This document shows positions 3,255 to 63,570 of a stretch of 64,000 nucleotides of DNA, in pieces. Within the stretch, counting starts at the first letter, position 1; each line of letters starts with the position of its first letter. This DNA comes from an uncultured bacterium (GTDB lineage: Bacteria > Desulfobacterota_D > UBA1144 > Nemesobacterales > UBA2774). A program made the position numbers and the translations under genes. The notes under the pieces were generated by a model, which was given only the letters and a program-made list of their open reading frames with translations, was not told the DNA's origin and searched no databases. The stretch spans positions 96,001 through 160,000 of the forward strand of contig CAWGRW010000010.1 of the NCBI GenBank assembly GCA_963825135.1, read 5' to 3'.

Positions 3255-4030
3255 AATTGAAAGATTTTAGCTTAAACATAAGATTTTTAGCATAATTCTG
3301 TAGAGTCTTTTCGGAAACCACACTGCGTGTGTTCATCAAGGAAAAGAAAATATTATCTTTGTCTTCTCCTTTGCTTTGTCATTCCCGACACCGATCGGGA
3401 ATCCAGTCTTTAATCTCTTATTGCAAGTCTTCGCAAAAGCCGCGGCAATCTCGTCTTTATCTTTATTCCCTCCTTTCGTAAAGGAGGGTTAGGGTGGATT
3501 TTACATTATGTCATTTCGAGCAGCGCGAGAAATCTATTGTCGTCATTGCGAGCGAAGCGAAGCAATCTCGCCTTTTCTTTCCCGACATTACAGAATTTGC
3601 GTATAGAAAATCGATTGTACGAGCGTTAAAAATCTTACGCGGGACGAATGCAAGCGAGCGCGCATTCGGACGCCCTCTCCTATCCGCACGACGTTAGTTA
3701 GCCACGGACATTGCTAAACTATCGCTCCGATGGGGTTGAATTGGAAGATTTAGCGAGTACATGAGATTTTTAGCACAATTCTGTAGAATCTTTTCGGAAA
3801 ACACACTACGTGTGTGATTTTTGCTTATTTTCATCAAGGAAAAGAAGGATAAAAAAATAGCCTTTCACCTTTCTTTGTCTTTTCATTATCTTTTCATAGA
3901 CCACTTTAGGTGCACGGTGTTTTCATAATCCACACTGCGTGTGTTCATCAAGGAAAAGAAGGAAGTATAGTTGCCTTTTCTTGGTCTTTATCTTTTCATT
4001 TCTATTCAGAAAGGCTCGCAGCACTACGTT
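3255..4030 (+). repeat. Composite intergenic repeat block
   Basis: Half core, several REP-like hairpins, core with ~87-bp insert. Confidence 0.9.
3644..3730 (+). mobile_element. ~88-bp insert subtype A in the core-hairpin loop (also 5482-5569, 12667-12754, ~22049-22137, 38043-38129, degenerate ~47523-47593)
   Basis: Present/absent polymorphism among core copies; starts (A)ACGAATGC-loop-GCATTCGGAC. Confidence 0.8.
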
Positions 4031-4046
4031 AGGGGTGGTCCCGCGG

Positions 4047-4496
4047 TTACACGGGTCTCAGCTTCTCTCTTATTTTCTCAAGGGATATGCGATAATGCTC
4101 TCCGTACTGCCTGTACTTACCGTCCTTGAACAGCTCGTGCGCCCTGAGCGTTATCTGGCGCTTCGTGTCGTCGGCGAAGGTATCCAGGTTAAGCCCTGAA
4201 AGGAATACTGCGGAATAGCAGGAGATGTTGTCCTGCCCCCTCACGAATATGTCGGCGAGCATCCTCGACGACCCCGGCGTGTCCGATTCCCCGAGCACAT
4301 AGACGCAGGCCTCCTGCCATATGTGCGTCCTGCTCCCGAACATCTTCTTCAGCGAGTGCCAGTCGAGGTCGGAAAACCCCGCGAGGATAACCTCGCCCTC
4401 ACGGTAATCCCGCTCGTACCAGTTCTCGCCCGGATGTATGTTGCCGTTAGCCGTGTGCTCCTTCAAGTGTCTGTCGAAAAGTTCAGTTCCGTCCAC
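4047..4496 (-). CDS. Hypothetical protein
   Basis: 149-aa ORF, GTG start preceded by GAGGGG, coding-like codon usage. Confidence 0.65.
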   Translation of the reverse strand: MDGTELFDRHLKEHTANGNIHPGENWYERDYREGEVILAGFSDLDWHSLKKMFGSRTHIWQEACVYVLGESDTPGSSRMLADIFVRGQDNISCYSAVFLSGLNLDTFADDTKRQITLRAHELFKDGKYRQYGEHYRISLEKIREKLRPV

Positions 4497-4594
4497 GTTT
4501 TATTAGTTCCCCTCTCGCGTGTGCGGCTTTGCTCAGCCCGCACTGAAGATAACAGGCTTTATTTTACACAATTTAAATTTTCAGGCTAATCGCC

Positions 4595-5760
4595 CGCACA
4601 CGCATACAGAGTGTTCCACGGTCCTGCCGGTCTTTTTCCGCTTCATCCGGCAATTTGCCCATCCCGTTCACCCTTAGCGCACACGAAGTGTGCTGTCGAA
4701 GGATGCGAAATTATTTCCCTCCCCCTCAATAGGAGGGGGGAGGGTTAGGGTGGGGGTGTACCTTAATCATTCTGTCATTGCGAGCGTAACGAATGAGTGT
4801 GAGAGAAGCGCGGCAATCTCGTCTTTATCTTTATTCCCTCCTTTCGTAAAGAACGAATGCGAATAAACAAGCATTTGGACGCCCTATCCCAAAGAGCAAC
4901 TAAGGAAATACGCTTCCAGCTCAATGTTGCCATACTCCAAACAGGTTAGGGAGGATTTAGTTTTTTCTTTACGTTTCCCGACAATACACAATTTGCGGCG
5001 GGTGAGCACCCGCACATTAATTTCCCTCCCCCCTTTTCAAAGTGGGGGAGGGTTCGGGTGGGGGGTTTACATTACACTCCAATTAAGCAAGAAAGCCTTT
5101 TCTTTCCCGACATTACAGAATTTGCGTGAAGAAAATCGATTGTACGAGCGTTAAGAATCTTACGTGGGCCGGGGTGGGATCGGAAGATTTAGCGAGTACA
5201 TGAGATTTTTAGCACAATTATGTAGTCGGATGATTTTTGCTTCTTTTCATCAAGGAAAAGAAGGATACAAAAACATCCTTTCACCTTATCTGTGTCTTTG
5301 CTTTTCGAAAGATCACGCTTCGTGTGTGTCGCGGCTGGTAGCCGCTCCTACAACTATGAGTGTCATTGCGAGCGGTGCTTATGAAGTAAGCGCAGCGCGG
5401 CAATCTCGTATTTTCTTTCCCGACATTACGGAATTTGCGTTAAGAAAATCGATTGTACGAGCGTTAAAAATCTTACGCGGGAACGAATGCAAGCGAGCGA
5501 GCATTCGGACACCCTCTCCTATCCGCACGACGTTAGTTAGCCACGGACATCGCTAAGCTATTGCTCCGATGGGGTGGGATCGGAAGATTTAGCGAGTACG
5601 TGAGATTTTTAGCAAATTCTGTAGTCGGATGATTTTTGCTTCTTTTCATCAAGGAAAAGAAGGATAAAAAAAACATTCTTTCGCCTTTCTTTGCCCATTC
5701 GAAAGATCACACTACGTGTGTCTTTTCCTTGTCTTTCCGTAAGCAGGAAGTCCAGGCGCA
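4595..5760 (+). repeat. Composite intergenic repeat block
   Basis: Two cores and two inserts; GTAG-type hairpin at ~5328-5351. Confidence 0.9.
4852..4943 (+). mobile_element. ~92-bp insert subtype C in the CCCTCCTT...AAGGAGGG repeat (noisy relative ~21274-21355)
   Basis: Empty site visible at 3468-3501. Confidence 0.75.
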
Positions 5761-5838
5761 ATCACCAAACCCAAGGCACACCCCCCATCTCCTCTTCCCC
5801 CTCATCACAGAATTTCGGTCAATAAGCCTGTCGTCCCC

Positions 5839-6772: not shown

Positions 6773-7162
6773 ACGATGTCTTTCAGGAGCGCACAGGGCG
6801 GAGGACTTCCGCTCTGCGCCCGCTCCCACGGGCTCAAGTAATACCTGAATCGGGGATCCGATCAGCCCTCCGACGCTGACTTTTTACGATTTTGATGATA
6901 ACCGCGGCCCCGCCCGTACTTTTCTTGAAACTTCTTTAAATAAATGCGCCCGCCCCCCTGATATGCTTGGCTTATTTAAGCCCGCAGCGTCTGTCAGGCG
7001 TCATTTTATGTATATAAAGACTTCTCGCCCGTCGCCTGCGTCTATGCCTAAACTTACCCCCTCGAAATTATGTCCCGTTCAGGTATCCTCATATACTCTG
7101 AAAAAAGGGCGGATAATACCTTATCCCGCTCTCTAAATATATTTCGGAAAGGAGCTAAGATA

Positions 7163-8359
7163 ATGGGTTTCGACGATTCGATCGGCAAGCTGAGCAGATA
7201 CTCCAATGACAAACACCCGGTCACCACACTCTACCTCAGGCTGAACCCTCACGACAGGGAAAACTTCGGCTACAAAATAACGCTCAAGAACCTGGCAAAG
7301 GAGCTCAGGGAGAATATGGGGAAAAGGGGGATTTCGAAGGAAGCCCTCGATTCGGTTGAATCGGACATCTCGAAGATCCAGAGCTACATCGACAACGCGG
7401 ACGGCCTCACCGAGTGCCGTGGCATAGCCGTCTTTTCATGCTCCGGAGACGGTTTCTGGGAGGCGCTAAAACTCCCCGCGCTCTACAAGAACCAGCTGCT
7501 CATAGACCGCACCCCAGCGACGGGTCAGCTTTATAAAGTCGCCGACGATTACAGGCACATCGTCACCGTGCTCATAGACAGGAAGAAGGCGCGCATATTC
7601 GGCATCGGCCTCGACGGCACGCACGAGGTCCTCGATTATTTCTACCCGGCCGCCGAACGCTCGACCAAGTTCCATAACCCGGAAGGCAAGTACACCAAGA
7701 AATCGATGCCGGCTTCGGACGCGAGGAGCCTCTCGCAGGGGTTCGGCGAGTTCAAGTTCAACAGGATGATAGAGAACGAAATACACCAGCACTTCAAGTA
7801 CGTCGCGCAGATGCTCAGGGATTACTACCGCAAGGAGAATTTCCGCTGGCTCATTCTCGGCGGGACCGACGAGAATATCGCGGAATTCGCGCACCATCTC
7901 CCGACGGAAATGACGGAGAGGCTCGCGGGCACGGTAACTCTGGACCTCGAAAGGATAAGGCCCTCGATAGTTACGGGAGCGTCCCTCGATACGCTCGATA
8001 AAACGAGGGCCGGGAAGCAGCAGAAGCTGCTTCAGGAATTCGCGGATAAGCTCCCGGTGGGCTACGCGGTCGACGGCCTCAAGTCCACGCTCGACGCGAT
8101 CAGAAACAGTCAGGTGAGGGTGCTCTTCGTCGAAGACGGCTTCACGCATCCGGGCTTCGTCTGCCCCGATTCGGGGGAATACCTCACGGACGGCGCGGGG
8201 AAATGCCCCGGCGGCGGCGACCCGGTCCCCGTGAACGACCTCGTCGAGTGCGCTGTCGATGAAGCGTTCGGCCAGGGCGCGGAGGTCGAGATAATTCAGG
8301 ACGAGCCCTACAAGAAGCTCATCCACGGCGCGGGTGCGATCCTCCGCTTCAAGCTCTGA
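7163..8359 (+). CDS. Bacterial archaeo-eukaryotic release factor (eRF1/pelota-like, baeRF) family protein
   Basis: eRF1-like domain layout: GIAVFSC, LILGG, YAVDG...TLDA...VRVLFV, Cys motif CPDSG...CPGGG, GAEVEII...GAGAILRF. ATG 7163 follows GGAG. Confidence 0.8.
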   Translation: MGFDDSIGKLSRYSNDKHPVTTLYLRLNPHDRENFGYKITLKNLAKELRENMGKRGISKEALDSVESDISKIQSYIDNADGLTECRGIAVFSCSGDGFWEALKLPALYKNQLLIDRTPATGQLYKVADDYRHIVTVLIDRKKARIFGIGLDGTHEVLDYFYPAAERSTKFHNPEGKYTKKSMPASDARSLSQGFGEFKFNRMIENEIHQHFKYVAQMLRDYYRKENFRWLILGGTDENIAEFAHHLPTEMTERLAGTVTLDLERIRPSIVTGASLDTLDKTRAGKQQKLLQEFADKLPVGYAVDGLKSTLDAIRNSQVRVLFVEDGFTHPGFVCPDSGEYLTDGAGKCPGGGDPVPVNDLVECAVDEAFGQGAEVEIIQDEPYKKLIHGAGAILRFKL

Positions 8360-9100
8360 CGCGCACGCATAATGCGTTTTTGCGATTTCTGCCATACTCC
8401 TCAGACCTCCCGAGAGATCATACATTCCCGGCTCTAGGAGTGGCCTCCAACCGTCATATATCTTTAAGCAGTCATTGCGAGGCTTCGCAGAAGCCGCGGC
8501 GGGTGAGCACCCGCGGGCATACGATCTCTAACATCCCCCTCAGCTCAACCCAGTCCGCTCACCCCGTACTCTTAATTCCTTCCCCCTGGAGGGGGAACTG
8601 CTTCGAGCAAGCGAGAAGTAGGACGCCCTGACCCTTTAGCCACTTGGGTAACTGTGACCATGCTCTCCGATTTGTCGAGCATGTGGTGAGGATGGGGGTG
8701 TCGCCTTTCACTCATTCAATCATCCGGTAAGTTTTTCTCTTCCCGACATTACAGAATTTGCGTTAAGAAAATCGATTGTACGAGCGTTAAGAATCTTACG
8801 TGGGGTGGGGTGGAATTGGAAGATTTAGCGAGTACATGAGATTTTTAGCAAATTATGTAGTCGGAATGATTTTTGCTTCTTTTCATCGAGGAAAAGAAGG
8901 ATTAAAAAACAGCCTTTCACCTTTCTTTTATCTTTTCGAAAGACCACACTACGTGTGTGATTTTTGCTTCTTTGTATCCAGACAAAGAAGGAAATAATAT
9001 TGTCTTAGCCATTTCCTTATCTTTGTCTTTTCTTTCCGAAAAATCACATTATGCGTGTGTCGCGGCTGGCGGACTTGATCCGGGAACTCTCTCCTACAAA
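8360..9100 (+). repeat. Composite intergenic repeat block
   Basis: Starts right after the baeRF stop codon; one core, one insert. Confidence 0.9.
8596..8684 (+). mobile_element. ~89-bp insert subtype D in the TCCCCCTGGAGGGGG repeat (longer relative ~44590-44753)
   Basis: Empty-type site at 62901-62940. Confidence 0.75.
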
Positions 9101-9747: not shown

Positions 9748-10512
9748 ACACATAGTGTCATTCCGCGATTCCACCGGCAATTCTCAACTTAATCCGGCGA
9801 CTCGCCAATCCCGTTCACCCCGAGCGCACACGAAGTGTGCAGTCGAAGGGTGCGAAATTATTTCCCTCCCCCTCAATAGGAGGGGGAACGGTTGCAAGCA
9901 AGCGCGCAACTGGTCACTCTCTCAGCGAAGTCACCGAAGTACATTAACTTCCGGCTTTACGCTGCCTAAACCAAAACAGCAAGGGTGGGGGTGTACCTAG
10001 ATATGTAAACCCGTTCGTGCTGAGCTAGTCGAAGCACGTTACCGACATTACAGAATTTGCGGCGGGTGAGCACCCGCAGGCATGTGATCTCAACCATTCT
10101 TCCGCTCGACTACGGTCTGGTCAACTTCGAACAAGCGGGAGAGCACCAATCATTCTGATCACTCCTGAGCCGTCGAAGGGTGATTATTCCCGACATTACA
10201 GAATTTGCGTGAAGAAAATCGATTGTACGAGCGTTAAAAATCTTACGCGGGCTGGGGTGGAATTGGAAGATTTAGCGAGTACATGAGATTTTTAGCACAA
10301 TTCTGTAGTCGGATGATTTTTGCTTCTTTTCATCAAGGAAAAGAAGGATAAATAAAACAGCCTTTCACCGTTCTAGTCTTTTCATTATCTTTTCATAGAC
10401 CACTTTAGGCGCACGGTGTTTTCATAACCCACACTACGTGTGTTCATCAAGGAAAAGAAGGATAAAAAAAACAGCCTTTCACCTTTCTTGTCTTTCTCTT
10501 TACCTTTCCGAA
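9748..10512 (+). repeat. Composite intergenic repeat block
   Basis: One core, one clear insert. Confidence 0.9.
9887..9980 (+). mobile_element. 94-bp insert subtype B in the CCCTCCCCCTCAATAGGAGGGGG repeat (also 12061-12154)
   Basis: Empty sites at ~4717-4760, 25959-26001, 30457-30500. Confidence 0.8.
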
Positions 10513-11783: not shown

Positions 11784-13005
11784 GTCGTTGCGAGGTCCCT
11801 GCGGAACCGCGCCAATCTCGTCTTTCCTTCCCGACATTACAGAATTTGCGGCGGGTGAGCACCCGCGGGCATACGATCTCTAGCATCTCCAATCCTGTCA
11901 TTTCGAGCAGCGCGAGAAATCTATCTTTCCCTTTTAATTTCCCCCTTAGAAAAAGGGGGACTAAGGGGGATTTAGTCGTTAAACCGTTCACCCTGGGCGC
12001 ACACGAAGTGTGCTGTCGAAGGGTGCTTCCTTTAATTCCCTCCCCCTCAATAGGAGGGGGAACAGTTGCAAGCAAGCGCGCAACTGGTCACTCTCTCAGC
12101 GAAGTCACCGAAGTACATTAACTTCCGGCTTTACGCTGCCTAAACCAAAACAGCACGGGTGGGGGTGTACATCAATCTTTTTGTCATTGTGAGCGTAACG
12201 AACGAATGCGAGAGAAGCGAGGCAATCTCGTCTTTTCCTTCCCGACATTACAGAATTTGCGTTAAGAAAATCGATTGTACGAGCGTTAAGAATCTTTGGG
12301 CAGTCGAATCGGAAGATTTAGCGAGTACATGAGATTTTTAGCACAATTCTGTAGTCGGATGATTTTTGCTTCTTTTCATCAAGGAAAAGAAGAATAAGAA
12401 GAACCGTCCTCTGGCAGATTGCATTCAAGCTGCTGTGCATGGGACGAACCTCCAAATAAAATCCGCAAAGAAGCGAAGCAATCTCGCCTTTCCTTCCCGA
12501 CATTACAGAATTTGCGGCGGTCACCACAACGCGGGCATATCATCTGCGAGACTTCGCGCAACCAGCGCGGCCCAACCCGTCCGTCTGAGCTGTCGATGCT
12601 CATTCCCGACATTACAGAATTTGCGTATAGAAAATCGATTGTACGAGCGTTAAAAATCTTACGCGGAACGAATGCAAGCGAGCGCGCATTCGGACGCCCT
12701 CTCCTATCCGCACGACGTTAGTTAGCCACGGACATCACTAAACCATTGCTCCGATGGGGTGGAATCGGAAGATTTAGCGAGTACATGAGATTTTTAGCAC
12801 AATTATGTAGTCGGATGATTTTTGCTTCTTTTCATCAAGGAAAAGAAGGATAAAAAAAATATCCTTTCACCTTTCTAGTCTTTTCATTATCTTTTCATAG
12901 ACCACTTTAGGTGTACGGTGTTTTCACAAACCACACTACGTGTGTTCACCAAGGAAAAGAAGAAGATATATCATGCCTGTCCTTTGCCTTTGTCTTGTCC
13001 TTCCG
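11784..13005 (+). repeat. Composite intergenic repeat block
   Basis: Two cores, three inserts (one partial). Confidence 0.9.
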
Positions 13006-20856: not shown

Positions 20857-22420
20857 TGCGGCACACAATGTGTGCTCATATATGATCCTTCCGAAACTCT
20901 TACGCTCAAACCAGCAACGTAGCCAAACCCGTTCGTGCTGAGCTTGTCGAAGCACGTACACACATATTGCGGCACACAATGTGTGCTTTACGATCCTTCC
21001 GAAACTCCTACGCTCAAACCAGCGACATAGCCAAACCCGTTCGTGCCGAGCTTGTCGAAGCACGTTACCGACATTACAGAATTTGCGGCGGGTGAGCACC
21101 CGCGGGCATACGATCTCAAACATCTCCTTTCCTGTCATTTCGAACGCAGTTCAGCGTGCGCGCAACTGGTGACGTTGTTGATTGCAAGTAACTCTAATTG
21201 ACACCGTACACGATCTGCACAATCCAAAACGAGAAATCTGTCTTTGCCTTTGGTATTAATTCCCTCCTTAAAAAACGATCGAACGGGCGAGCATTCGGAC
21301 CTATCTCAAAGAGCACAGAAGTAACTTACCTTCCAGCTCCATCCTTCTGAAGTCGTTAGGGGGATTAGCTTTACCCCGTTCGTGCTGAGCTTGTCGAAGC
21401 ACGTACACACATATTGCGGCACACAATGTGTGCTTTACGATCCTTCCGAAACTCCTACGCTCAAACCAGCGACATAGCCAAACCCGTTCGTGCTGAGCTT
21501 GTCGAAGCACGTTACCGACATTACAGAATCCGCGGCGGGTGAGCACCCGCGGGCATACGATCTCAAACATCTCCTTTCCTGTCATTTCGAACGCATGTTG
21601 CAGCGTGCGCGCAACTGGTCGACGTTGGTTGATTGCAAGTAACTCTAATTGACACCGTACACGATCTGCACAATCCAAACGAGAAATCTGTCTTTTGCCT
21701 TTGGTATTAATTCCCTCCTTAGAAAAAGGAGGGCTAGGGAGGATTTAGCTTTACCCCGTTCGTGCTGAGCTTGTCGAAGCACGTTACCGACATTACAGAA
21801 TTTGCGGCGGATGAGCACCCGCGGGCATACGATCTCGAGCATCTCCTTTCCTGTCATTTCGAACGCACGGGAGAAATCTGTCTTTTGCCTTTCCGACATT
21901 ACAGAATTTGCGTTTAGAAAATGGATTGTACGAGCGTTAAGAATCTTACGCCGTTCGAGCGAATGCAAGTCGAAGTACTGTTACCGAGCGTTGCGAGAAT
22001 TAGCGTCGAATCGCGCCGATTGTACGAGCGTTAAGAATACTTCATGGAAACCGAATGCAAGCGAGCGCGCATTCGGACACCCTCTCCTATCCGCACGACG
22101 TTAGTTAGCCACGGACATCGCTAAACTATTGCTCCGATGGGGCGGAATTGGAAGATTTAGCGAGTACATGAGATTTTTAGCACAATTCTGTAGTCGGATG
22201 ATTTTTGCTTCTTTTCATCAAGGAAAAGAAGGATAAAAAAACAGCCTCTCACCGTCTTCTAGTCTTTTCATCTGATCTTTTCATAGACCACTTCACTAGC
22301 GTGCACGGTGTGCTTTCATAATCCAACACTATGCGTGTTCATCGAGGAAAAGAAGAGAGCAATCTCGCCTTTAATTGTTTCCTTTGTCTTGCCTTTTCGG
22401 AAGACCACACTATGTGTGCC
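20842..22420 (+). repeat. Composite intergenic repeat block with internal tandem duplication
   Basis: Overlaps the peptidase stop codon; several inserts; noisy copies. Confidence 0.88.
21590..21680 (+). mobile_element. ~90-bp insert subtype F in the GTCATTTCG...GAGAAATCT repeat (also ~21142-21230)
   Basis: Empty sites at 21853-21880 and 47412-47440. Confidence 0.7.
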
Positions 22421-25771: not shown

Positions 25772-26556
25772 ACTTCCCCATATTAATGGGAGGGTCCGGG
25801 TGGAGGTCTACCTCATTATTTTTGTCATTGCAACGGTTCTGATGAATAAGAAGAACCGGTCGCTGCTGGCTGATTGCATTCAAGCTGCTGTGCCATGGGA
25901 CGAACCCGCCAAATATAATCCGCGAAGCAGCGCGGCAATCTCGTCTTTTGCAATTAATTCCCTCCCCCTCAATAGGAGGGGGGAGGGTCAAGGGTGGGGG
26001 GTTTACATTACAATCCAATCAACCAAGAAAGTCTTCTCTTCCCGACATTACAGAATTTGCGTCAAGAAAATCGATTGTACGAGCGTTAAGAATCTTACGT
26101 GGGCTGGGGTTGAATTGGAAGATTTAGCGAGTACATGAGATTTTTAGCAAATTCTGTAGTCGGATGATTTTTGCTTCTTTTCATCAAGGAAAAGAAGGAT
26201 AAATAAAACAGCTTTTCACCTTTCTTTGTTTTTTCTTTTCGAAAGTTCACACAACGTGTGTCTCTACGACTCTTCCGTGACTCCTCAGCTCAACCAACAA
26301 GCGAAGCCAAACCCGTTCGTGCTGAGCTAGTCGAAGCACGTTACCGACATTACAGAATTTGCGTCAAGAAAATCGATTGTGCGAGCGTTAAGAATCTTAC
26401 GTGGGCTGGGGTTGAATTGGAAGATTTAGCGAGTACATGAGATTTTTAGCAAATTATGTAGTCGGATGATTTTTGCTTCTTTTCATCAAGGAAAAGAAGG
26501 ATACAAAAAACATCCTCTCACCTTTCTAGTCTTTTCATAAAACACACAATGTGTGC
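25772..26556 (+). repeat. Composite intergenic repeat block
   Basis: Two cores, one insert. Confidence 0.9.
25832..25924 (+). mobile_element. ~93-bp insert subtype G in the GTCATTGC...GCAATCTC repeat (also 27414-27507, 32298-32390, 32488-32580, partial ~12391-12470)
   Basis: Empty sites at 53722-53755, 58170-58203, 59410-59443. Confidence 0.8.
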
Positions 26557-27396: not shown

Positions 27397-28272
27397 AATA
27401 TTTTTGTCATTGCAATGGTTCCGATGAATAAGAAGAACCGGCCGCTGCCGGCTGATTGCATTCAAGCTGCCGTGCCATGGGACGAACCTGCCAAATAAAA
27501 TCTGTGAGAGCAGCGCGGCAATCTCGCCTGTTCCTTTAATTCCCTCCCCCCTCCATAAGGGGGGAGGGTGCGGGTGGGGGGTTTACCTTAATATGCCTGT
27601 CAGCCTTTTCTTCCCCGACATTACAGAATTTGCGGCGCACACGCACATAGTGCGTTTCTATGATTCTTCCGTAACTCCTACGCTCAAACCAGCGACGTAG
27701 CCCAATCCGTTCGCCCCGAGCGCACACGAAGTGTGCCGTCGAAGGGTCTCTTCCCTTCAATTTCCCCCTTAGAAAAAGGGGGATTAAGGGGGATTTAGTC
27801 TTTTCTTTTTCCCCGACATTACAAAATTTGCGGCGGGTGCTCACCCGCACATTAATTCCCCTCTCCCTTGAGGGGAGAGGGTGAAGGGTGAGGGTGTACC
27901 TTATCACTACTATCAATCTAGAAGTCTTTTCTTCCCGACATTACAGAATTTGCGTTAAGAAAATCGATTGTACGAGCGTTAAAAATCTTCCACGGGGTGG
28001 GGTAGAATTGGAAGATTTAGCGAGTACATGAGATTTTTAGCAAATTATGTAGTCGGATGATTTTTGCTTCTTTTCATCAAGGAAAAGAAGGAATTAAATT
28101 AGCCTTTGTCTTGTCCTTCCTTAGTTTTGTCTTTCCGAAAGATCACACTACGTGTGTTCATCAAGGAAAAGAAGGATTAAAAAAATATCCTTTCACCTTT
28201 CTTGTCTTTTCATTACCTTTTCATAGACCATTTAGGCGCACGGTGTTTTATAAACTACACTACGTGTGTGCC
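27397..28272 (+). repeat. Composite intergenic repeat block (divergent gene pair)
   Basis: One core, two free joints, one insert. Confidence 0.9.
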
Positions 28273-32236: not shown

Positions 32237-33103
32237 CTCCTCTCCCCCTGTGGGAGAGGATCAAGGTGAGGGGGTACCTCAATATTTTTGTCATTGCAAC
32301 GGTTCTGATGAATAAGAAGAACCGGCCGCTGCTGGCTGATTGCATTCAAGTTGCTGCGCCCTGGGACGAACCTGCCAAATAAAATCTGCGAAGCAGCGCG
32401 GCAATCTCGTCTTTTGAAATTAATTCCCCTCCCCCTCAATAGGAGGGGAGGGTCAAGGGTGGGGGTGTACCTCATTTTTGTCATTGCAACGGTTCTGATG
32501 AATAAGAAGAACCGGTCGCTGCTGGCTGATTGCATTCAAGTTGCTGTGCCATGGGACGAACCTGCCAAATAAAATCCGCAAAGCAGCGCGGCAATCTATT
32601 TTTTCTTATCTTCCCGACATTACAGAATTTGCGGCGGGTGAGCACCCGCATATTTATTCCCCTCCCCCCTTCCAAAGTGGGGGAGGGTCAGGGTGGGGGG
32701 TTTACCTTATCACTCCTATCAAACAGAAAGTCTTTCTCTTTCCCGACATTACAGAATTTGCGTTAAGAAAATCGATTGTACGAGCGTTAAGAATCTTACG
32801 CGGGGTGGGGTTGAATTGGAAGATTTAGCGAGTACATGAGATTTTTAGCAAATTATGTAGTCGGATGATTTTTGCTTCTTTGTATCCAGACAAAGAAGAA
32901 AATAATATTGTCTTTGCTTTTCATAATCCAAACTACGTGTGTGATTTTTGCTTCTTTTCATCAAGGAAAAGAAGGATAAAAAAAACAGCCTTTCACCTTT
33001 CCTTTGTCTTTTCATTATCTTTTCATAGACCACTTTAGGTGCACGGTGTTTTCATAATCCACACTACGTGTGTCTTTTCATCGAGGAAGAGAAGAAATAA
33101 TAT
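32237..33103 (+). repeat. Composite intergenic repeat block (divergent gene pair)
   Basis: Tandem ~190-bp unit with insert, then core. Confidence 0.9.
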
Positions 33104-34623: not shown

Positions 34624-35162
34624 GCACCCGCGGGCATACGATCTCCAACATCCCCCCTCAGCTCAACCCAACCCGTTCGTCCTGAGCGCACACGAAGTGT
34701 GCTGTCGAAGGGTTTCTTCCTTTCAATTTCCCCCTTAGAAAAGAGGGGAGACAAATCCGAACGTGTGAGGAATTGGTTGGAGTTTGGTGATAGCAAAGAA
34801 GTCGCTTAATTGAAGCGGCAAATGTTATTAAAACCAAATTAAGGGGGATTTAGTTTTTTCTTCTTTCCCGACATTACAGAATTTGCGTCAAGCAAAATCG
34901 AGTTGTACGAGCGTTATGAAGTAGCGCAGCGCAATCTCGTCTTTCTGCAGACGTCGAGATTGTGGGGTTGAATTGGAAGATTTAGCGAGTACATGAGATT
35001 TTTAGCAAATTATGTAGTCGGATGATTTTTGCTTCTTTTCATCAAGGAAAAGAAGGATAAAAAAACGTCCTTTCACTTTTCATAGACCACTTTAGCGCAC
35101 GGTGTTTTCATCAACACGTGTGTCTTTTCTTTGCCTTTTCTTTCCGAAATCGAGAAGCCCGG
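34614..35162 (+). repeat. Composite intergenic repeat block
   Basis: Overlaps the permease stop codon; one insert, one noisy core. Confidence 0.88.
34750..34838 (+). mobile_element. ~89-bp insert subtype H in the TCCCCCTTAGAAAA.AGGGG repeat
   Basis: Empty sites at 11940-11975 and 27762-27797. Confidence 0.7.
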
Positions 35163-37544: not shown

Positions 37545-38660
37545 CGCGCACGCTCAGCGTGTTCTACGATCCCTTCCAACTCCGCCGCCATTATCGATAA
37601 CCCAAGCCAAACCCGTTCGTGCTGAGCTAGTCGAAGCGTGTGAACTTATTTCCCTCCCCCCATGAGGGGGAACGGATGCGAGCGTGCAAGCATTCGGTCG
37701 CCCTCCGCAAAACGCAAGCAAGCTACTGTGCCATGGGAAGGACATACTATATACAAATCTGCATAGCAGCGCGGCAATCTCGTCTGTTCCTTTAATTCCC
37801 TCTCCCTCGCGGGGGAGAGGGACAGGGTGAGGGGGTACTTTATTATTCTTTTCCTTTCCCGACATTACAGAATTTGCGGCGGGCACACACAATGTGTGCT
37901 TTATGATCCTTCCGAAACTCTTACGCTCAAACCAGCAACGTAGCCAAACCCATTCGTGCTGAGCTTGTCGAAGCACGTTACCGACATTACAGAATTTGTG
38001 TTAAGAAAATCGATTGTACGAGCGTTAAAAATCTTCCACGGGACGAATGCAAGCGCGCGCGCATTCGGACACCCTCTCCTATCCGCGCGACGTTAGTTAG
38101 CCACGGACATCGCTAAACTATCGCTCCGATGGGGCAGAATTGGAAGATTTAGCGAGTACATGAGATTTTTAGCAAATTATGTAGAGTCTTTTCGGAAACC
38201 ACACTACGTGTGTGATTTTTGCTTCTTTTCATCAAGGAAAAGAAGGATAAAAATAAAGCCTTTCACCTTTCTTTTGTCTTTCCGAAAGTTCACACTATGT
38301 GTGTGTCGCGGCTGGAAGCCGCTCCTACAGAGTTTGTCACTGCCAGCAGCGCGAAAAATCTATCTTTTGCCTTTCCTTCCCGACATTACAGAATTTGCGT
38401 TAAGAAAATCGATTGTACGAGCGTTAAGAATCTTCCACGGGGTGGGGTTGAATTGGAAGATTTAGCGAGTACATGAGATTTTTAGCGTAATTCTGTAGTC
38501 GGATGATTTTTGCTTCTTTTCATCAAGGAAAAGAAGGATAAAAATAAGGCCTTTCACCTTTCTTTGCCTTTTCTTTTCGAATGATCACGCTATCTATGTT
38601 CATCAAGGAAAAGAAGGATAAAAAAACAGCCTTTCACCTTTCTTTCGTCTTTCCGTAAGG
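37545..38660 (+). repeat. Composite intergenic repeat block
   Basis: Two cores, two inserts. Confidence 0.9.
37671..37763 (+). mobile_element. ~93-bp chimeric insert (subtype I)
   Basis: Family 5' hairpin; left flank from one repeat family, right part and flank from subtype G. Confidence 0.65.
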
Positions 38661-47184: not shown

Positions 47185-47838
47185 CACGCAGCACACAATG
47201 TGTGCGCATATACGATTCTTCCGAAACTCTCACGCTCAAACCAGCAACGAAGCCAAACCCGTTCGTGCTGAGCGCGAAGGTGGTCGAAGTCTCTTCCCAA
47301 TCCCCCTCAAAAAAGGGGGATTAAGGGGGATTAGTTTTCTCGTTCCCGACATTACAGAATTTGCGGCGGGTGAGCACCCGCAGGCATACGATCTCAAGCA
47401 TCTCCTTTCCTGTCATTTCGAACGCATGTGAGAAATCTGTCTTTCTTCTTTTTCTTCCCCGACATTACAGAATTTGCGTATAAGAAAATCGATTGTACGA
47501 GCGTTAAGAATCTTACGCGGGAGAATGCAAGCGAGGGATTGGAGCCTCTTATCCGCACGAGTTAGAGCCACGGACATCGCTATTATTGCCCGTGGGGTAT
47601 TGGAAGATTTAGCGAGTACATGAGATTTTTAGCACAATTCTGTAGTCGGATGATTTTTGCTTCTTTTCATCAGAGGAAAAGAAGAAATAAAATTCAGCCT
47701 TTGCTTATCCTTCTATTTGTCTTTTCGAAAGATCACACTACGTGGTGTCCGCTCGAGCGCTACCAGGGTGTCATTGCTAGCTGCGAAGCAGCGCGGCAAT
47801 CTCGTCTTTTCCTTCCCAAACATTTACGGAATTTTCGT
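47185..47838 (+). repeat. Composite intergenic repeat block
   Basis: Core with degenerate insert; right edge overlaps the aquaporin stop codon. Confidence 0.88.
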
Positions 47839-48495
47839 CGGGCGCCGCCCATAGACGAACCCGAACGCAGGCACGGCGAGAGCCGCCCCTATGAGCGGCG
47901 CGGCCAGGTATATCCACAGCCCCGCGAGATGAAACGACACGAGCGCGGGCGCGAGCGACCTCGCCGGGTTCATCGAAGCCCCCGACACCGGCCCCCCGAA
48001 CATCGCTTCGAGCCCCACGACGGCCCCTATCGCGATCCCCGCCATTATTCCCTTCTCCTTGCTCCCCGCGGACACGCTCAGTATCACGAACATGAGGAAG
48101 AACGTGAGCAGTATTTCGAGCGCGAACGACTGCATCCGGGGCCCCGAGGGCAGCGTCGCCCCCAGGTCCGTGCCCCCTCCGAAAAGGAGCGCGAGAGCGA
48201 GGCTCGCGGCGATAGCCCCCGCGCACTGGCTCACGACGTACGGGACCACCCTCCCTCCGGGGAACCGGCCCGCCATCCAGAACCCGAGCGTGACCGCGGG
48301 GTTGATGTGCGCCCCCGACACGTCGCCGATTGCGTATATGACGGACATCACCGTGAGCCCCCACACTGCCGCTACCCCCGCGTGCGTGATGACGCCTGCG
48401 TAGAGGCTGTTCACCACCATCGCGCCCGTGGCGGCGAAGACGAGAAAGAACGTCCCCAGCCCTTCCGCGAAATAGATACGCATAGACTCCTTCAT
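47824..48495 (-). CDS. Aquaporin/MIP channel in ars operon (probable arsenite channel)
   Basis: SGAHINPAVT and SMNPARS NPA motifs; downstream of arsRC. Confidence 0.92.
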   Translation of the reverse strand: MKESMRIYFAEGLGTFFLVFAATGAMVVNSLYAGVITHAGVAAVWGLTVMSVIYAIGDVSGAHINPAVTLGFWMAGRFPGGRVVPYVVSQCAGAIAASLALALLFGGGTDLGATLPSGPRMQSFALEILLTFFLMFVILSVSAGSKEKGIMAGIAIGAVVGLEAMFGGPVSGASMNPARSLAPALVSFHLAGLWIYLAAPLIGAALAVPAFGFVYGRRPTKIP

Positions 48496-48598
48496 CCCGG
48501 ACCGGACCTCCGTTCGTTCGGCATTGTGATTGTAATGTGAGACGCCGCCTGATTATCCGCGCGGCGCCCGGTGATTTTTAATTGTGCCGGAACCCGGC

Positions 48599-52197: not shown

Positions 52198-52322
52198 CCG
52201 AGCCTCCGTAACGAAATCCTTATGTCTGTTCATAGTTTTCAGCATGCTTTATATTCCCTTAAACGCTCTTCTCCTTCCGGCTTCAGCAGCCTCTCAGCTG
52301 CGCGTAATTTACTCCTCCGCTA

Positions 52323-52423
52323 TCAGCTTACGGCGTCCGACTGCTTACTTGCTCGCAGTCGTTTCACAGCGAAGAACACGCCGATCAGCACGAGCCCCGC
52401 CCCGGCCGCGATCATCCCCCACT
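52323..52423 (-). pseudogene. 3' remnant of an IPTL-CTERM gene (WGMIAAGAGLVLIGVFFAVKRLRASK...)
   Basis: Anchor-coding DNA only; cut next to a REP-like hairpin at 52437-52471. Confidence 0.75.
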
Positions 52424-52554
52424 TTAGTTTTTGAATTTCCCCCTTTACAAAGGGGGATTCAGGGGGATTTGAATTTCTTTCTTTTAAGAATTAAACGCCC
52501 TCTTCCTTCCGGCTTAAGCAGCCTCTCGGCTGCGCGCAATTTACTCCTCCGCTA

Positions 52555-53088
52555 TCAGCTTACGGCGTCCGAAGGCTTACTTGCTCGCAGTCGTTTCGCC
52601 GCGAAGAACACGCCGACGATCATCAGCCCCGCACCGGCCGCGATCATCCCCCACTCCGAGAGAGTCGGGATGCTTCGTGACCCGGAACCTCCGACATTCG
52701 TAAACGTACAAGACCCTGTGCTGCCCGGAACCAGGCAGACGACTTGAACGGCGTTCTCGGTATCGAAGTTGAAGCCGAGACCCTCACCCGTGCAGGATAT
52801 GTCGTCGAGGTTCCAGCCTTCCAGCGGCAGCTCGACGATTACGGCGCTTGAAGAGAAATTCACCGCCGATGTTGCGCCATCCATAAGAGAACCCGGAATC
52901 GACGGGCCGTTGTCCAAGGTAACTTCAAAGGGGAATTCCGTGTCCCCCCCGCCCTGCGCAACCTTCGTGAACTCTATACGGCACTCCTGGGCCCTTGCGC
53001 CTTCAGGAGTCATAAAAACCACGGAGCATGCCGAAATAATTAGAAATAATAGAACAATACGGATGGAAAAACTTGAAATTTCCCTGAT
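52555..53088 (-). CDS. IPTL-CTERM surface protein (signal peptide begins at an ATC codon)
   Basis: GGAGGA RBS then in-frame ATC AGG GAA... signal peptide; IPTLSEWG tail. Confidence 0.8.
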   Translation of the reverse strand: MREISSFSIRIVLLFLIISACSVVFMTPEGARAQECRIEFTKVAQGGGDTEFPFEVTLDNGPSIPGSLMDGATSAVNFSSSAVIVELPLEGWNLDDISCTGEGLGFNFDTENAVQVVCLVPGSTGSCTFTNVGGSGSRSIPTLSEWGMIAAGAGLMIVGVFFAAKRLRASKPSDAVS

Positions 53089-53720: not shown

Positions 53721-54375
53721 TGTCATTGCAAGCTGCATAGCAGCGCGGCAATCTCGTCTTTCCTCTCCGACATTACAGAATTTGCGGCGGGTGAGCACCC
53801 GCAAATTAATTCCCCTCTCCCTTGAGGGAACGGTTCAGAGCAAGCGCATGAACCGGTCGGAGTCACAACGAAACTGATGTAGCCAATTAACTCAGTCTCA
53901 ATGCAACTTAAACTCAATTGGGTATAGGGTGAGGGTGTACCTTATCACTACTATCAATCTAGAAGTCTTTTCTTCCCCGACATTACAGAATTTGCGTATA
54001 GAAAATCGATTGTACGAGCGTTAAAAATCTTACGTGGGGTGGGGTTGAATTGGAAGATTTAGCGAGTACATGAGATTTTTAGCACAATTCTGTAGTCGGA
54101 TGATTTTTGCTTCTTTGTATCCAGACAAAGAAGAAAATAATATTGTCTTTGCCTTTTCTTTTCTTTTCTTTTCGAATGATCACGCTATGTATGTTTATCA
54201 AGGAAAAGAAGGATAACAAAACAGTCTCTCACCATTCTTTGTCTTTGCTTTGTCTTTCCGAAAAATCACATTGCGCTTGTGTCGCGGCCGGAAGCCGCTC
54301 CTGCAAGTGATCGAGAATGCAGTATCGCTGAAACACAAAAAAAGCCCCTTTCCTCCACGCCGGAAGAAAGGGGCA
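53721..54375 (+). repeat. Composite intergenic repeat block
   Basis: One core, one insert. Confidence 0.9.
53829..53919 (+). mobile_element. 91-bp insert subtype E in the CCCTCTCCCTTGAGGG repeat
   Basis: Empty site with nearly identical flanks at 27858-27935; the insert replaces about 4 nt (GAGA). Confidence 0.8.
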
Positions 54376-55804: not shown

Positions 55805-56320
55805 CTATACCACCTGCGCCCTCTTGCGTTTGACGGCAAAGAACACCCCGACCAATCCTAATCCCGCCGCCGCAGCGATCATCCCCCACTGGGAAAGAGT
55901 CGGGATATTAGAAACTCTCACGTTCACGAACGTGCACTCGCCCTGAACAAACTCCGACGGATTGAGGCAATCGAACGTGAACCCGTCCTCGACCTCGGTC
56001 ACCACAACCCCCGTCCCGGTCTCGCACGATTTGTCCGCCAGCTCCCATCCGGAGTTAGGCAGCTCAGTGAGCGTCACGGGCTCGCCGCTTCCGAAATTGC
56101 CGACACTCGTTTGGCCTCCTATAAATTCGGCGAAAGCCGTATTGCCGCCCACTTCGACCTGGAAGTCAAAAATGAGGCCCTCCCCGCCTTCCGCTATTTT
56201 CGTAACCGCTATTTTGCATGTGCCCTGCGCGCGGCTCTCGCCCGACGTCAGGAACAACACCCCGGTCACGGCTGCAACGAATAAGAAAATGCTGAAAAGC
56301 GGTTTGAACAGCTTGGTCAT
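55805..56320 (-). CDS. IPTL-CTERM surface protein
   Basis: IPTLSQWG-TM-KRKR; GGAGG RBS. Confidence 0.88.
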   Translation of the reverse strand: MTKLFKPLFSIFLFVAAVTGVLFLTSGESRAQGTCKIAVTKIAEGGEGLIFDFQVEVGGNTAFAEFIGGQTSVGNFGSGEPVTLTELPNSGWELADKSCETGTGVVVTEVEDGFTFDCLNPSEFVQGECTFVNVRVSNIPTLSQWGMIAAAAGLGLVGVFFAVKRKRAQVV

Positions 56321-56489
56321 ATCATCCTCCGCATACTCAAATTTTGCTAAATTTTACAACACTTGCTCAAAATTTTCAAAATTAATACAATTTTATCACG
56401 TCCCGTCCCGGAATCATTCGTCATACAGGCCCGCAATCGCCCGGCCGATTACGCTTGCAGTCGCGCCCCAGGCCCGTATCCTATTGACC

Positions 56490-57155
56490 ATGCGTGCCCG
56501 TATCGCGTTTATATCCGCCCTGCTGCTTCTGCTCTTCGCGTCCCCGGCGGCGCGCGGAGCGGACCCCGCGGACACCTCCCTGGTCCCGGGCTCGGACCCG
56601 GCCCATGCGGTCAAGTGCGGCGAAGCGTCGGTTTATGTATATCCCGAATATATCGTATATGCTAGTAAGTCGCCCGCTTTCGAGGGACAGGACATCCGCT
56701 TATTCAAGCCGCGCGCTCCCGTGGACGACCCGTGCTCTCTCGCCTCTCGCCAGGCCTACTACACGATAAACGCCGGGGAGTTCGGAGGGGCGAACACCTT
56801 CATCGGCATGCGCGGAGGGTATCTCTTCATCGACGAGTGGCCGGGGCGCGAGGACAAGCGCTTCCTGGTAATCGACGCGGCGTCCAAGAGCCTCGTGTAC
56901 TTCGACTGGTACGCGGACCCGGCGATAGAGAACGGCAAGCTCGAATACAACCGCGTCATCAAGGCGAGCGGCTCGACGAAAAAGGAGATACCGTGCCCTG
57001 ACGCGGAGAAGTGGGAGAAAGAGGGCCGCGCGGTCCTCTACGTGGAGAAGATGTCGCTTGACCTCACGACCATGAAGGGGACCGATTCAGGCAAGTTCTC
57101 CTGCGAACCCGCCGCTCCGATAACCAAACGGGCCGCCGATTACACGATACACTGA
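56490..57155 (+). CDS. Hypothetical exported protein (paralog of 36909-37544)
   Basis: MRARIAFISALLLLLFA signal; shared motifs with 36909-37544. Confidence 0.75.
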   Translation: MRARIAFISALLLLLFASPAARGADPADTSLVPGSDPAHAVKCGEASVYVYPEYIVYASKSPAFEGQDIRLFKPRAPVDDPCSLASRQAYYTINAGEFGGANTFIGMRGGYLFIDEWPGREDKRFLVIDAASKSLVYFDWYADPAIENGKLEYNRVIKASGSTKKEIPCPDAEKWEKEGRAVLYVEKMSLDLTTMKGTDSGKFSCEPAAPITKRAADYTIH

Positions 57156-61350: not shown

Positions 61351-61554
61351 ATACCCCTCCTTCAATATTTTGAACCCATTTTACTAAATATGCCGTGCAA
61401 TGTCAATCATAATTCATTGACATTCATGGTTGTACGTCGAAATACGGTCTGTCTGCCGCTCATTTCCTCATACTCCCCGCCGGATTAGCGAGGAGGGAGA
61501 GCGCCGGGGTGAGGGGATACATTTCTATTTCCGTCAATCATGGTTAAATAAGTC

Positions 61555-62064
61555 CTACGCCGTAATTCTTCTCCGCCTCAATGCGAAGAACACGCCTACC
61601 ATCGCCAATCCGGCCCCGGCCGCTATCATCCCCCACTGAGATAGAGTCGGGACGTTCGCGGGCCCTTTGTTGACGAAGGTACAGACCGCGAAGCCGTTGG
61701 TCGAACAGTCGGCTATAACCTGGTTATCGTCATTCACAAACACGGTAAAACCGGAGCTGACGTTTTCACATTTGACTTCGACCAGCTCCCACCCCGCTCG
61801 GTCGAGCTCGGTCACAGTCACGGTCTCTCCGGGTGTTAAAAATTCATTAGTACCGGTGCCGGCCGATAAGGAAAACGGATCATCCGGGTCCTTCGTGGAT
61901 TCCGCGAGAAAATCGAAGGACCCCTCCGGCGGGAACGCCTCTTTAACAATCTCGACCGAGCAGCCCTGCTCGACTGTTCCGGCCGAGGCCTGACGCGGGG
62001 ATACAGCCAACGCGACAAAGAACATAAGGCACAGACAAATTGCGGTTTCAATAAACTTACTCAT
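61555..62064 (-). CDS. IPTL-CTERM surface protein
   Basis: GGAGG before ATG 62064; VPTLSQWG-TM-RRRR. Confidence 0.88.
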   Translation of the reverse strand: MSKFIETAICLCLMFFVALAVSPRQASAGTVEQGCSVEIVKEAFPPEGSFDFLAESTKDPDDPFSLSAGTGTNEFLTPGETVTVTELDRAGWELVEVKCENVSSGFTVFVNDDNQVIADCSTNGFAVCTFVNKGPANVPTLSQWGMIAAGAGLAMVGVFFALRRRRITA

Positions 62065-62108
62065 TGAGCCTCCTTTAAATAGATCATAATTTGAATTTTC
62101 ACTTTTAT

Positions 62109-62642
62109 TTATGCCTCGCCCCGCGCCTTTCTTCCGCGAAGTGCGAAAAACACGCCGACGAGCACAAGCCCCGTCGCCGCCGCTATCATCCCCCACTCAG
62201 AGAGCGTGGGCACGCTTCCGAGCCGTTTATTGAAGAAAGTACATCCTGCGCCGCCGCCGTTGGGAGGACAGAGAATTCGTACGCCGTTCTCGATATTCGT
62301 TACGACCGCCGCGTCCTCGGTCACGCATTCCACATGATCGAGCACCCATCCGCTCAGCAGATCCTCTACTACGTCCACCGAACTTCCAGCGGGACTTGTA
62401 AGACCCTTACCGTCGCCGCTGACAAGGTCGAATTCCGGCGAGCTCGCCGGACCCGTAGTTACAAAGTGGAATTCGGTGCCGTCATCAGGCGTCGCCACTT
62501 TGCTGATGCCGATTTCACAGCCAATCTGGGCATAACTTGTCCCTGGATGTATCGCCGCAAACCCGGCCGCGATAAATATAATTACCAATAAATAAGACAT
62601 ATTACGTATTTGATTCAGGAACAGGCTCGCTATGCTTCTCAT
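62109..62642 (-). CDS. IPTL-CTERM surface protein
   Basis: VPTLSEWG-TM-RGRK. Confidence 0.88.
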   Translation of the reverse strand: MRSIASLFLNQIRNMSYLLVIIFIAAGFAAIHPGTSYAQIGCEIGISKVATPDDGTEFHFVTTGPASSPEFDLVSGDGKGLTSPAGSSVDVVEDLLSGWVLDHVECVTEDAAVVTNIENGVRILCPPNGGGAGCTFFNKRLGSVPTLSEWGMIAAATGLVLVGVFFALRGRKARGEA

Positions 62643-62776
62643 ATTCCCTCCTTTAATTGACAGGCTGTATTATACGATTTTCCGACGAAACTTGCAACCG
62701 CAACTTGTGAGCTCTTAAAGGTGACGGGACACATTGTGATAGCGTCGATTACGGGCCCTGGGAGGAATCGGACGCC

Positions 62777-63570
62777 CACACACGCACGTAGTGCGTTTCT
62801 ACGATCCTTCCGACTCCTCCGCTTCCACAATACTCCCGTATGTCAGCGGCGACACGCCGCCCCGTTCACCCCGAGTGCAGACGAAGGTTTAAAATTCATC
62901 CCCTCCCCCTTGAGGGGGGAAGGCGAGGATGGGGGTGTCACCATTCATCCATTCAATGATGCTTATATCTTTTCCTTCCCCCGACATTACAGAATTTGCG
63001 GCACACATTGTGTGCTCATATACGATTCTTCCGTAACTCCTCTGCTTTCGGCAGGGAATGAGCCCAACCCGTTCACCCTGAGCACGTCGAAGGGTGATTA
63101 TTTCCGACATTACAGAATTTGCGTTAAGAAAATCGATTGTACGAGCGTTAAGAATCTTCCACGGGACGATTCCGAACTAGTAAGGAATCGGACGCCCTAT
63201 CCTTATCAGCAACTTCGGAATTATAATCACGCATCATCAACCCACATCACCATGTGGGGTAGAATTGGAAGATTTAGCGAGTACATGAGATTTTTAGCAC
63301 AATTCTGTAGAGTCTTTTCGGAAACACACTACGTGTGTGATTTTTGCTTCTTTTCATCAAGGAAAAGAAGAGATCAGTTTCGTCTTGCCTTTTCCGTGTC
63401 TTTTCGGAAACCCACTACGTGTGTGATTTTCGCTTCTTTTCATCGAGGAAGAGAAGGATAAAAAAAACAGCCTCTCACCTTTCTTTTCTTTGTCTTTTCG
63501 AAAGACCACACTACGTGTGTTCATCAAGGAAAAGAAGGTTTAAAAAAAATAGCTCTTCACCTTTCTTTGT
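62777..63570 (+). repeat. Composite intergenic repeat block
   Basis: Core with a unique ~88-bp insert. Confidence 0.9.
63166..63253 (+). mobile_element. ~88-bp insert subtype A2 in the core-hairpin loop
   Basis: Same position as subtype A, different sequence, same 5' hairpin architecture. Confidence 0.75.

Follow-up and report, generated by a model that had tools for sequence, protein, structure and literature searches.

Gene-less 86–90-nt units with a REP-like head occupy repeat hairpins and tRNA-linked arrays in one family of Dadabacteria

Repetitive extragenic palindromes (REPs) that lack a REP-associated tyrosine transposase (RAYT) and tRNA-linked repeats have both been known for a long time, and their origin is unexplained. 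Insertion sequences (IS) of the IS200/IS605 and IS110/IS621 groups insert without target duplication, use DNA hairpins or REPs as targets and act with strand specificity, all of which recurs in the units reported here. In the intergenic mosaics of Neisseria, composed of dRS3 and RS units, CGTC-type REPs alternate with repeat units of 50–150 bp, and the small dispersed repeats of Nostoc (Elhai et al. 2008) are reportedly 21–27 nt long, structured, marked by compensatory changes and nested both in themselves and in other repeats. CGTC-tagged REPs are defined by an unpaired CGTC, TGTC or CCTC tag, an 8–9-bp stem starting with AT, a 4–5-nt loop and a short tail; the portion of the paper by Di Nocera, De Gregorio and Rocco (2013, PMC3733652) available to us also reports REP dimers inside longer palindromes and REPs inserted in palindromes, equates dRS3 with CGTC-1 REPs and describes the Neisseria CGTC REPs as interleaved with other repeats in mosaic regions. 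Here, we describe a family of short units that occupy repeat hairpins in a 64,000-nucleotide stretch of DNA (the window), positions 96001–160000 of a 224-kb contig (CAWGRW010000010.1) from an uncultured member of the Dadabacteria. The genome comprises 3.13 Mb in 17 contigs and is 94% complete, and like all genomes compared below it is a metagenome assembly.

Each unit is 86–90 nt long, gene-less, and built of a conserved head hairpin and a variable body of approximately 50 nt. The head runs from AAC (sometimes GAC) through a 7-bp stem, a purine-rich 10–11-nt loop of the GAGCAAGCGA type and the return stem to GGWCGC, and the loop itself holds two G.A mismatches and two further base pairs, the inner one being a 5'-C...G-3' pair that closes a 2-nt tip. 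The body ends in an AAAYCAAA-like motif in most copies. A covariance model of the 5' module from AAC to GGWCGC (R1) was built from 31 copies with differing stems, with a match threshold of E ≤ 0.01. This search, which the first-pass annotation of the window had proposed as a check, yielded 132 matches in the genome, and a sequence-only profile yielded 131–132 copies. Eighteen R1 matches lie in the window (16 on the + strand, 2 on the − strand). Seventeen larger reading frames were scanned against Pfam, 14 of them with a family match, and none of the 18 copies is located in any of these frames. The first-pass annotation had counted about 22 inserts, and the sequences at all 22 sites were inspected; R1 recovered full copies at 16 of these 22 sites, and the remaining six (21142, 21274, 21590, 27414, 44590 and 47523) did not reach the threshold. 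By eye, at least five of the six are decayed or shortened copies, and 44590 could not be placed. The single orientation assigned to all inserts had to be given up, as two window copies are on the − strand (52363 and 52595).

Covariation in the stem of the head is strong. In alignment A1, 97.5% of the cells are paired, compared with 78.3% after shuffling and 20–37% when the partner is slid, and two-sided changes were found at five of the seven stem pairs and at both pairs within the loop, the basal C-G and the fifth-position T-A being the invariant stem pairs. Since A1 was drawn from hairpin-positive copies and is thereby biased toward pairing, less selection-biased tests were added. With an nhmmer profile that does not enforce pairing, 125 of 131 genome matches have at least six of the seven stem pairs. 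With a 31-position pattern in which just two of the seven pairs were fixed, public genomes yielded 128 matches, 95 of them with 6–7 pairs and 33 at the chance level of 2–5 pairs; those of the latter that were compared with record titles are mostly lone matches in other, unrelated phyla. With regards to the strand, G.T/T.G pairs outnumber A.C/C.A pairs by 43:6 over all copies of the genome, by 31:6 in its 82 unique hairpins and by 39:2 (approximately 20:1) in 71 unique hairpins from other genomes. Because the wobble pairs are this one-sided, the AAC strand must fold, and it is the strand selected to do so. Both the retained pairing of changing stems and the folding of the AAC-bearing + strand had been claimed from the window and are confirmed on this larger set. 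The second, interrupted stem that had been proposed for the body is often present, for example in the fold of the copy at 34750, and differs from subtype to subtype; the consensus structure is confined to the head. As a hairpin, the head is REP-like and shares its general design with the CGTC/TGTC-tagged REPs of this genome.

The hairpins that harbor the units also occur empty in the window, as noted at first pass. Host A is present in 83 copies in the genome, 67 of them empty (gap 28–34) and 12 filled (gap 120–122) at the same central site; the window accounts for 29 copies, all on the + strand, with 20 empty and 6 filled, and the filled copies span several of its flank variants. Hosts B, C, D, E and G were likewise found empty in the window. 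Several to many of the host hairpins consist of CGTC or TGTC, an 8–9-bp stem starting with AT and a 3–5-nt loop, as in TGTC + ATTCCCGA, a 4–5-nt loop and TCGGGAAT + CC. The units occur only in repeats, tRNA arrays or other units. Across 42 junction contexts, the net gain was 80–90 nt, target duplication was absent, and usually 0–7 host bases were lost, in agreement with the earlier claim of few replaced bases; larger losses were traced to poor local alignment. The 5' junction is sharp to approximately 1 nt and identical across unrelated host types. The 3' junction is variable and imprecise, with small deletions and ends in ...CCA, CCAAA or CCAAAA. The base following the insertion site is most often G, as GAG or GAT, and the bases 5' of the insert vary (GGG, GAG, AGC, AAG, AAC, TGC and others). 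Copies enter their hosts at or beside the hairpin tip and in one fixed orientation relative to the host: in REP hosts, the tag lies upstream on the same strand in 28 copies, and the one copy scored as inverted is read as a chance match. The uniform orientation of the window inserts follows that of the host repeats. Of the proposed rule of one subtype per host, the linkage of subtypes to hosts remains and the exclusivity does not, as host A carries two body types and a hybrid in this genome and another type in relatives, and host B carries several insert clusters.

Judged from these copies, the family behaves as mobile. In five clusters, inserts that are 93–97% identical are embedded in 50-nt flanks that are 37–71% identical; the seven-copy cluster of the insert at 25832 reaches 97.4% identity within flanks of 66–68%. 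At least five junction contexts are the head loop of another copy, which amounts to nesting. Near-identical strain-variant contigs (approximately 97%) differ by one 86-nt array unit, and a more diverged, approximately 91%-identical copy of the same region carries a 93-nt insert where its counterpart is empty. These data agree with the first-pass view of a fixed-length, structure-conserved, gene-less and mobile family. In four congeners, the orthologous intergenic regions were too rearranged for a site-by-site alignment; at one congener site behind the same gene, the same head family was found with a different body. Heads and bodies recombine. One hybrid copy joins the head of one type to the body of another, and the body of the copy at 37671 is found elsewhere under another head. 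The chimeric insert at 8596–8684 (89 nt, three copies in the genome) carries a head on the + strand and, behind it, an inverted, head-like hairpin that reads on the − strand from 8683; the loop of this second hairpin is the same as that of other units. The hybrid, the copy with two host halves and this chimera all keep a length of 88–89 nt.

Units of the same family directly follow four tRNA genes (Arg-CCT, Glu-TTC, Arg-ACG and Arg-TCT), as a single unit behind tRNA-Arg(TCT) and as arrays of approximately 88-nt units behind the other three. They are antisense to the tRNA and stacked at the edge of the T-arm, and the 3' end of each is a reverse complement, approximately 14–15 nt long, of the tRNA 3' end, including CCA where it is encoded. 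The Rfam family RtT (RF00391) had no match at the four array loci, where only tRNA matches were obtained. At tRNA-Arg(TCT), located at 2203174 on contig C9, fragments of a tyrosine integrase lie just upstream (C9:2202049–2202556), and the tRNA gene is followed by one family unit and then by a duplicated stretch of approximately 1.8 kb.

Among relatives, R1 matched 20 of 24 other genomes of the same family, including all nine of the genus, with 17 to at least 150 matches per genome. It also matched one genome of a second family and none of 15 genomes from six other families of the order. In a 120-genome sample of the phylum, 27 of 32 genomes of the family were positive, with copy numbers from 2 to over 150, and none of the 37 and none of the 19 genomes from two other families were; matches in four further genomes were weak. 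The family thus persists across one family-level clade of Dadabacteria. Two related tailed-phage contigs from IMG/VR, identified by terminase, portal, major head and tail genes, contain 17 and 12 R1 matches, all of them on the strand opposite the structural genes and in the same kinds of host hairpins, and annotated phage and plasmid collections gave no match to the insert with flanks. In these phage contigs, repeat hairpins and inserts lie between nearly every gene and antisense to the genes, and opposite-strand frames of 230–370 aa with no family match, which could be morons, are found among the repeats. The phage contigs also hold head-only forms (for example at positions 7434, 12236, 20146 and 21746 of contig G041), 25-nt AAC-hairpins with neither GGWCGC nor a body, placed between a TGTC-tagged REP arm and the next REP, which suggests that the head may also exist as a free-standing REP. 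The membership of tRNA arrays, the restriction to a one-family clade together with two phage contigs, and the REP-like head with some CGTC/TGTC-tagged hosts are new here.

The reading we prefer, tentatively and with somewhat less than even confidence, is that of a REP-derived, non-autonomous insertion element which moves via a single strand of AAC polarity into opened hairpin tips, served by a mobilising factor. The element would move as or through this single strand, more likely as DNA than as RNA, and would be joined, on the same strand, to the tip that a folded host hairpin exposes. Recognition of the REP-like head and the hairpin targets would fall to a trans-acting factor, which would be none of a reverse transcriptase (RT), a Y1-HUH/RAYT enzyme, IS110, TnpB or a serine recombinase. 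Y1_Tnp, RVT_1, IS110 DEDD (PF01548), the TnpB zinc ribbon, resolvase and Transposase_31 were all not found in the 94%-complete genome. RT and Y1 do not track the element among relatives: RVT_1 was found in 6 of the 24 family genomes (4 of 20 element-positive and 2 of 4 element-negative ones, and 0 of 4 in one element-rich genus), and Y1_Tnp in 4 of 24 (3 of 20 and 1 of 4, respectively). Within one host-repeat family, short homologous arms probably aid further spread, which would account for the host-linked subtypes.

A number of results weigh against this reading. No mobilising protein was identified. The halves of host A, the one host covered by this search, are never split by a long, gene-enclosing copy. 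The target geometry is not uniform among host types, as the apical loop is replaced in host A and the REP-type hosts, whereas hosts B, C and G are entered in the 3' arm and tRNAs at the T-stem edge. In the contigs of four other sequencing runs, no joint was found that leaves out an insert precisely, nor any circular junction, and neither an excised form nor a de novo event was seen in these data, which are contigs and not raw reads. A replication-strand rule for the orientation was rejected, as the 30 + and 33 − copies of the main contig are intermixed within regions of one GC-skew sign; the orientation being independent of replication skew, an IS200-like lagging-strand model is weakened. The consensus structure obtained with RNAalifold from 57 cluster representatives is limited to the head, and the whole-unit DNA fold z-scores are modest, ranging from +0.6 to −2.5 on the element strand with similar values on the other strand. 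Finally, copies in one genome share descent, so that the shuffle statistics given above overstate their independence.

The main rival, which we consider unlikely though deserving of serious attention, is a recombinational mosaic and not transposition. The unit would be a motif of intergenic repeats resembling bacterial interspersed or neisserial intergenic mosaic elements (BIMEs or NIMEs), spread by homologous or microhomology recombination and unequal crossing-over among dense REP clusters, with hairpin breakage starting copying repair. The lack of a detected transposase fits this view, as do the confinement of the units to repeats, tRNA arrays or other units, the linkage of subtypes to hosts, the varying number of array units between strain variants, the head/body recombinants and the one copy that joins halves of two hosts, the imprecise 3' junctions with small deletions, and the rearrangement of intergenic mosaics between species; the interleaved CGTC REPs of Neisseria provide a precedent in the available portion of PMC3733652. 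However, the dissimilar flanks beyond the host arms around the near-identical inserts leave little homology for conversion, the same 5' junction is found in unrelated hosts, and nesting in head loops needs de novo joining. Moreover, the fixed orientation in REP hosts, combined with selection for strand-specific pairing, points to a single-strand step. The units might also be derivatives of a known system, either RAYT/IS200-IS605 HUH or IS110 with a bridge RNA, with the gene of the enzyme on an unassembled replicon, in a phage or in another member of the community. We regard this as improbable. The hairpin head, the strand-specific folding, the absence of target duplication and the REP targets are in its favor, the phage contigs that carry the element are only 28–39% complete, which leaves most phage genes unseen, and metagenome-assembled genomes (MAGs) often lose multicopy elements. 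On the other hand, neither Y1_Tnp nor IS110 DEDD was found in the genome, the incidence of Y1_Tnp among element-positive and element-negative relatives given above offers no support, the conserved hairpin is at one end only, and the bases 5' of the insert are not conserved. A guide or bridge was likewise rejected, as the complementarity of body 6-mers to the 5' flank was no better than with permuted flanks; the longest words common to the insert body and the 40-nt flanks were also no better than permuted ones, with the tRNA arrays as the sole exception. A bridge RNA together with element ends of the kind known from IS621 would not fit into 86–90 nt. The IS110/bridge RNA or HUH mechanism considered in the first-pass annotation was therefore not substantiated.

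A spread by RNA appears quite improbable. In that case, reverse transcription or RNA-templated repair would copy into broken hairpins a short, structured RNA whose 5' end is defined and whose 3' end is ragged and CCA- or A-rich, in line with the sharp 5' and variable 3' junctions and their CCA, CCAAA and CCAAAA ends, with the tolerated G.T wobble and the fixed length, and with the C(UUCG)G-like loop of some tRNA-linked units. Against it, RVT_1 was not found in the genome, is scarce among element-positive relatives and was found in none of the four genomes of the element-rich genus, and the folded strand is antisense to tRNA genes and phage structural operons, so that antisense transcription would be needed, with no promoter traveling with the unit. 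In addition, a 5'-C...G-3' pair closing a 2-nt tip, as found in the head loop, is a feature of DNA hairpins. To an assembly or binning artefact we assign a negligible chance: the genome was assembled from a metagenome and its small contigs represent strain variants, but the family is present in 27 of 32 genomes assembled by others and in named public MAG records, and contigs of other runs bridge three of the window inserts (9887, 12061 and 12667). More far-reaching than our preferred reading of a REP-derived insertion element, and distinctly unlikely at present, is the idea of an undescribed kind of DNA movement, in which a single-strand REP-like hairpin is joined into the opened tip of another hairpin. 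The joining factor may lie outside the known transposase families or may consist of general hairpin-processing or repair enzymes, and the tRNA-linked arrays may be built likewise. If true, the mechanism could be widespread and could explain tRNA-linked repeats and transposase-less REPs.

Irrespective of the mechanism, one sequence family links REP-type repeats and tRNA-linked repeats, and the same covarying, strand-specific head is found behind tRNAs, in palindrome tips, nested in other units and in phage genomes. With approximately 50 to more than 150 copies per genome, clear pairs of empty and filled sites and a sharply bounded occurrence (27 of 32 genomes versus 0 of 56 in the sister families), the lineage is workable for finding the factor. 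Annotators should be aware that nested repeat material makes up much of the intergenic DNA in these Dadabacteria and in their phages.

For better comparison, the coordinates of all units in the window are summarized in Table 1. The window as a whole, contig C10 and both ends of contig C9 contain clusters of several palindromic repeat types every 1–3 kb, which include host A and CGTC/TGTC-tagged REPs and keep a constant orientation regardless of that of the genes. The genes between the clusters vary among species of the genus in a cassette-like manner, and no integron integrase is present. Four full-length tyrosine recombinases were found in the genome (XerC, XerD and two generic ones), in addition to the fragments beside tRNA-Arg(TCT), and an integron reading of this co-oriented, cassette-like region was rejected, as they scored far below the integron-integrase cut-offs. 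In attC sites, the core sites R''/R' (RYYYAAC and GTTRRRY) pair with each other, unlike in the present units, where AAC has no paired GTT after the stem. A miniature inverted-repeat element (MITE) of a DDE transposon was rejected too, as the ends, the AAC-hairpin and ...AAAYCAAA, are not inverted copies and host bases are lost, not duplicated. The sole multicopy transposase-like DNA found is a decayed IS3-family fragment (HTH_21 + rve, 165 aa) at C9:279863–280720 with three diverged copies (86–88% identical). Between the repeat clusters of the window, positions 7070–8359 encode a protein of 429 aa that contains a bacterial eRF1-like domain (baeRF family 10), and frames of 306–422 aa with no Pfam match lie at 29045–30313, 47620–48540 and 55962–57155. 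The small contigs C1–C8 and C11–C17 mostly repeat stretches of C9 and C10 at 90–99% identity and most likely represent strain haplotypes left in the bin, which would slightly inflate the repeat counts of the genome.

Table 1. Units of the family and an example of an empty host in the window (positions of the window; CM match, match of the covariance model; gap, distance between host halves)
Feature	Position	Strand	Evidence
Insert, body type A1, in the middle of host palindrome A (filled host ~3617–3760)	3643..3731	+	CM match; gap 120 vs 34 empty
Insert in host C (CCCTCC...GGAGGG hairpin); 3' end to ~5 nt	4852..4943	+	CM match; empty sites, 3 host nt replaced
Insert type A1, host A	5482..5570	+	CM match; host gap 121
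Chimeric insert, host B	8596..8684	+	CM match; minus-strand hairpin; fold; empty site
Insert, host B, second body hairpin	9887..9981	+	CM match; empty sites, 7 nt replaced; fold; bridged by other-run contig
Insert, host B, body type as 9887	12061..12155	+	CM match; bridged by contigs of two other runs
Insert type A1, host A	12667..12755	+	CM match; host gap 120; bridged by one other-run contig
Insert type A1, host A	22049..22138 (CM match from 22050)	+	CM match; host gap 122
Insert in TGTC-tagged REP host (GTCATTGC...GCGGCAATC); 3' end approximate	25832..25921	+	CM match; seven-copy cluster
Insert, 25832 cluster, REP host	32298..32387	+	CM match; sequence
Insert, 25832 cluster, REP host	32488..32577	+	CM match; sequence
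Insert, 86 nt, starts GAC, host G (no host nt lost)	34750..34835	+	CM match; empty sites; fold with second stem
Insert, left flank host B, right flank REP host half	37671..37760	+	CM match; listing
Insert type A1, host A	38042..38130	+	CM match; host gap 120
Insert	52275..52363	−	CM match C10:148322-148363; scan
Insert, head partly decayed (5/7 pairs)	52507..52595	−	CM match C10:148554-148595; listing
Insert, host B	53829..53920	+	CM match; fold
Insert, body type A2, same host A site as A1	63165..63252	+	CM match; host gap 122
Three decayed copies with damaged heads (~21142, 21274, 21590)	21142..21684	+	Comparison with intact copies; below E ≤ 0.01 (R1)
Variant of the 25832 cluster, mismatched head	27414..27503	+	Sequence; below E ≤ 0.01 (R1)
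Shortened A1-type copy, host A (gap 101)	47523..47595	+	Sequence; host gap
Empty host A palindrome, gap 34 (example)	1675..1732	+	Host A scan

In comparison with known systems, no description of this family was found in the literature searched on Dadabacteria repeats, small dispersed and tRNA-linked repeats and nested palindrome insertions, and the available part of a mobilome preprint that mentions rttR holds nothing on mechanism. Rfam gave no match in the window at gathering score and, for two insert-bearing stretches, chance-level matches only at E up to 10. The first-pass statement that this is not a described element holds for the literature searched and Rfam, and is qualified by the REP-like head and by hosts that fit CGTC/TGTC-tagged REPs as defined in the available portion of PMC3733652. 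The systems at hand each share some traits with the units. Like the tRNA-linked repeats of E. coli (tyrT/RtT), the arrays consist of tandem units that directly follow a tRNA gene and each of which closes with a copy of the tRNA 3' end; here, however, the array units belong to a dispersed 132-copy family that also enters repeat hairpins, and we know of no description of such an insertion for the E. coli repeats. The Nostoc small dispersed repeats differ from the present units in the length of 86–90 nt, the two-part anatomy and the tRNA-linked arrays found here. Dense intergenic mosaics of REPs and repeat units are shared with Neisseria, whereas phylum and sequences are different, the unit enters the hairpin itself, and the head is its own and covaries.

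The palindrome-associated transposable elements (PATEs) of IS200/IS605 are set apart by the presence here of a hairpin at one end only and of no conserved 4–5-nt target word on the 5' side. More generally, the enzymes, the second end hairpin, the target word and the guide-target pairing of IS200/IS605 and IS110/IS621 were all looked for here and not found. REPINs, which are linked to RAYTs, resemble the family in being gene-less hairpin repeats thought to be moved in trans as single strands, according to the available portion of the work on GTAG REPs (Bertels and Rainey 2011, PMC3116915); here, no RAYT/Y1 gene was found in the genome and none tracks the element in relatives, there is no GTAG tag, and the unit is not an inverted REP pair. 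The CGTC-tagged REPs share several traits with the present system: part of the host hairpins fit their published definition in the available portion of PMC3733652, and the head of the insert has the stem cores ATTGC, ATTTC and ATTCC and the loop words of these hosts. It differs from them in its AAC(G/A) tag, 7-bp stem, 10–11-nt loop and 3' GGWCGC, and it is joined to a body of approximately 50 nt with a 3' motif of its own, so that the hairpins here are occupied by a whole 86–90-nt unit and not by a REP or a REP dimer.

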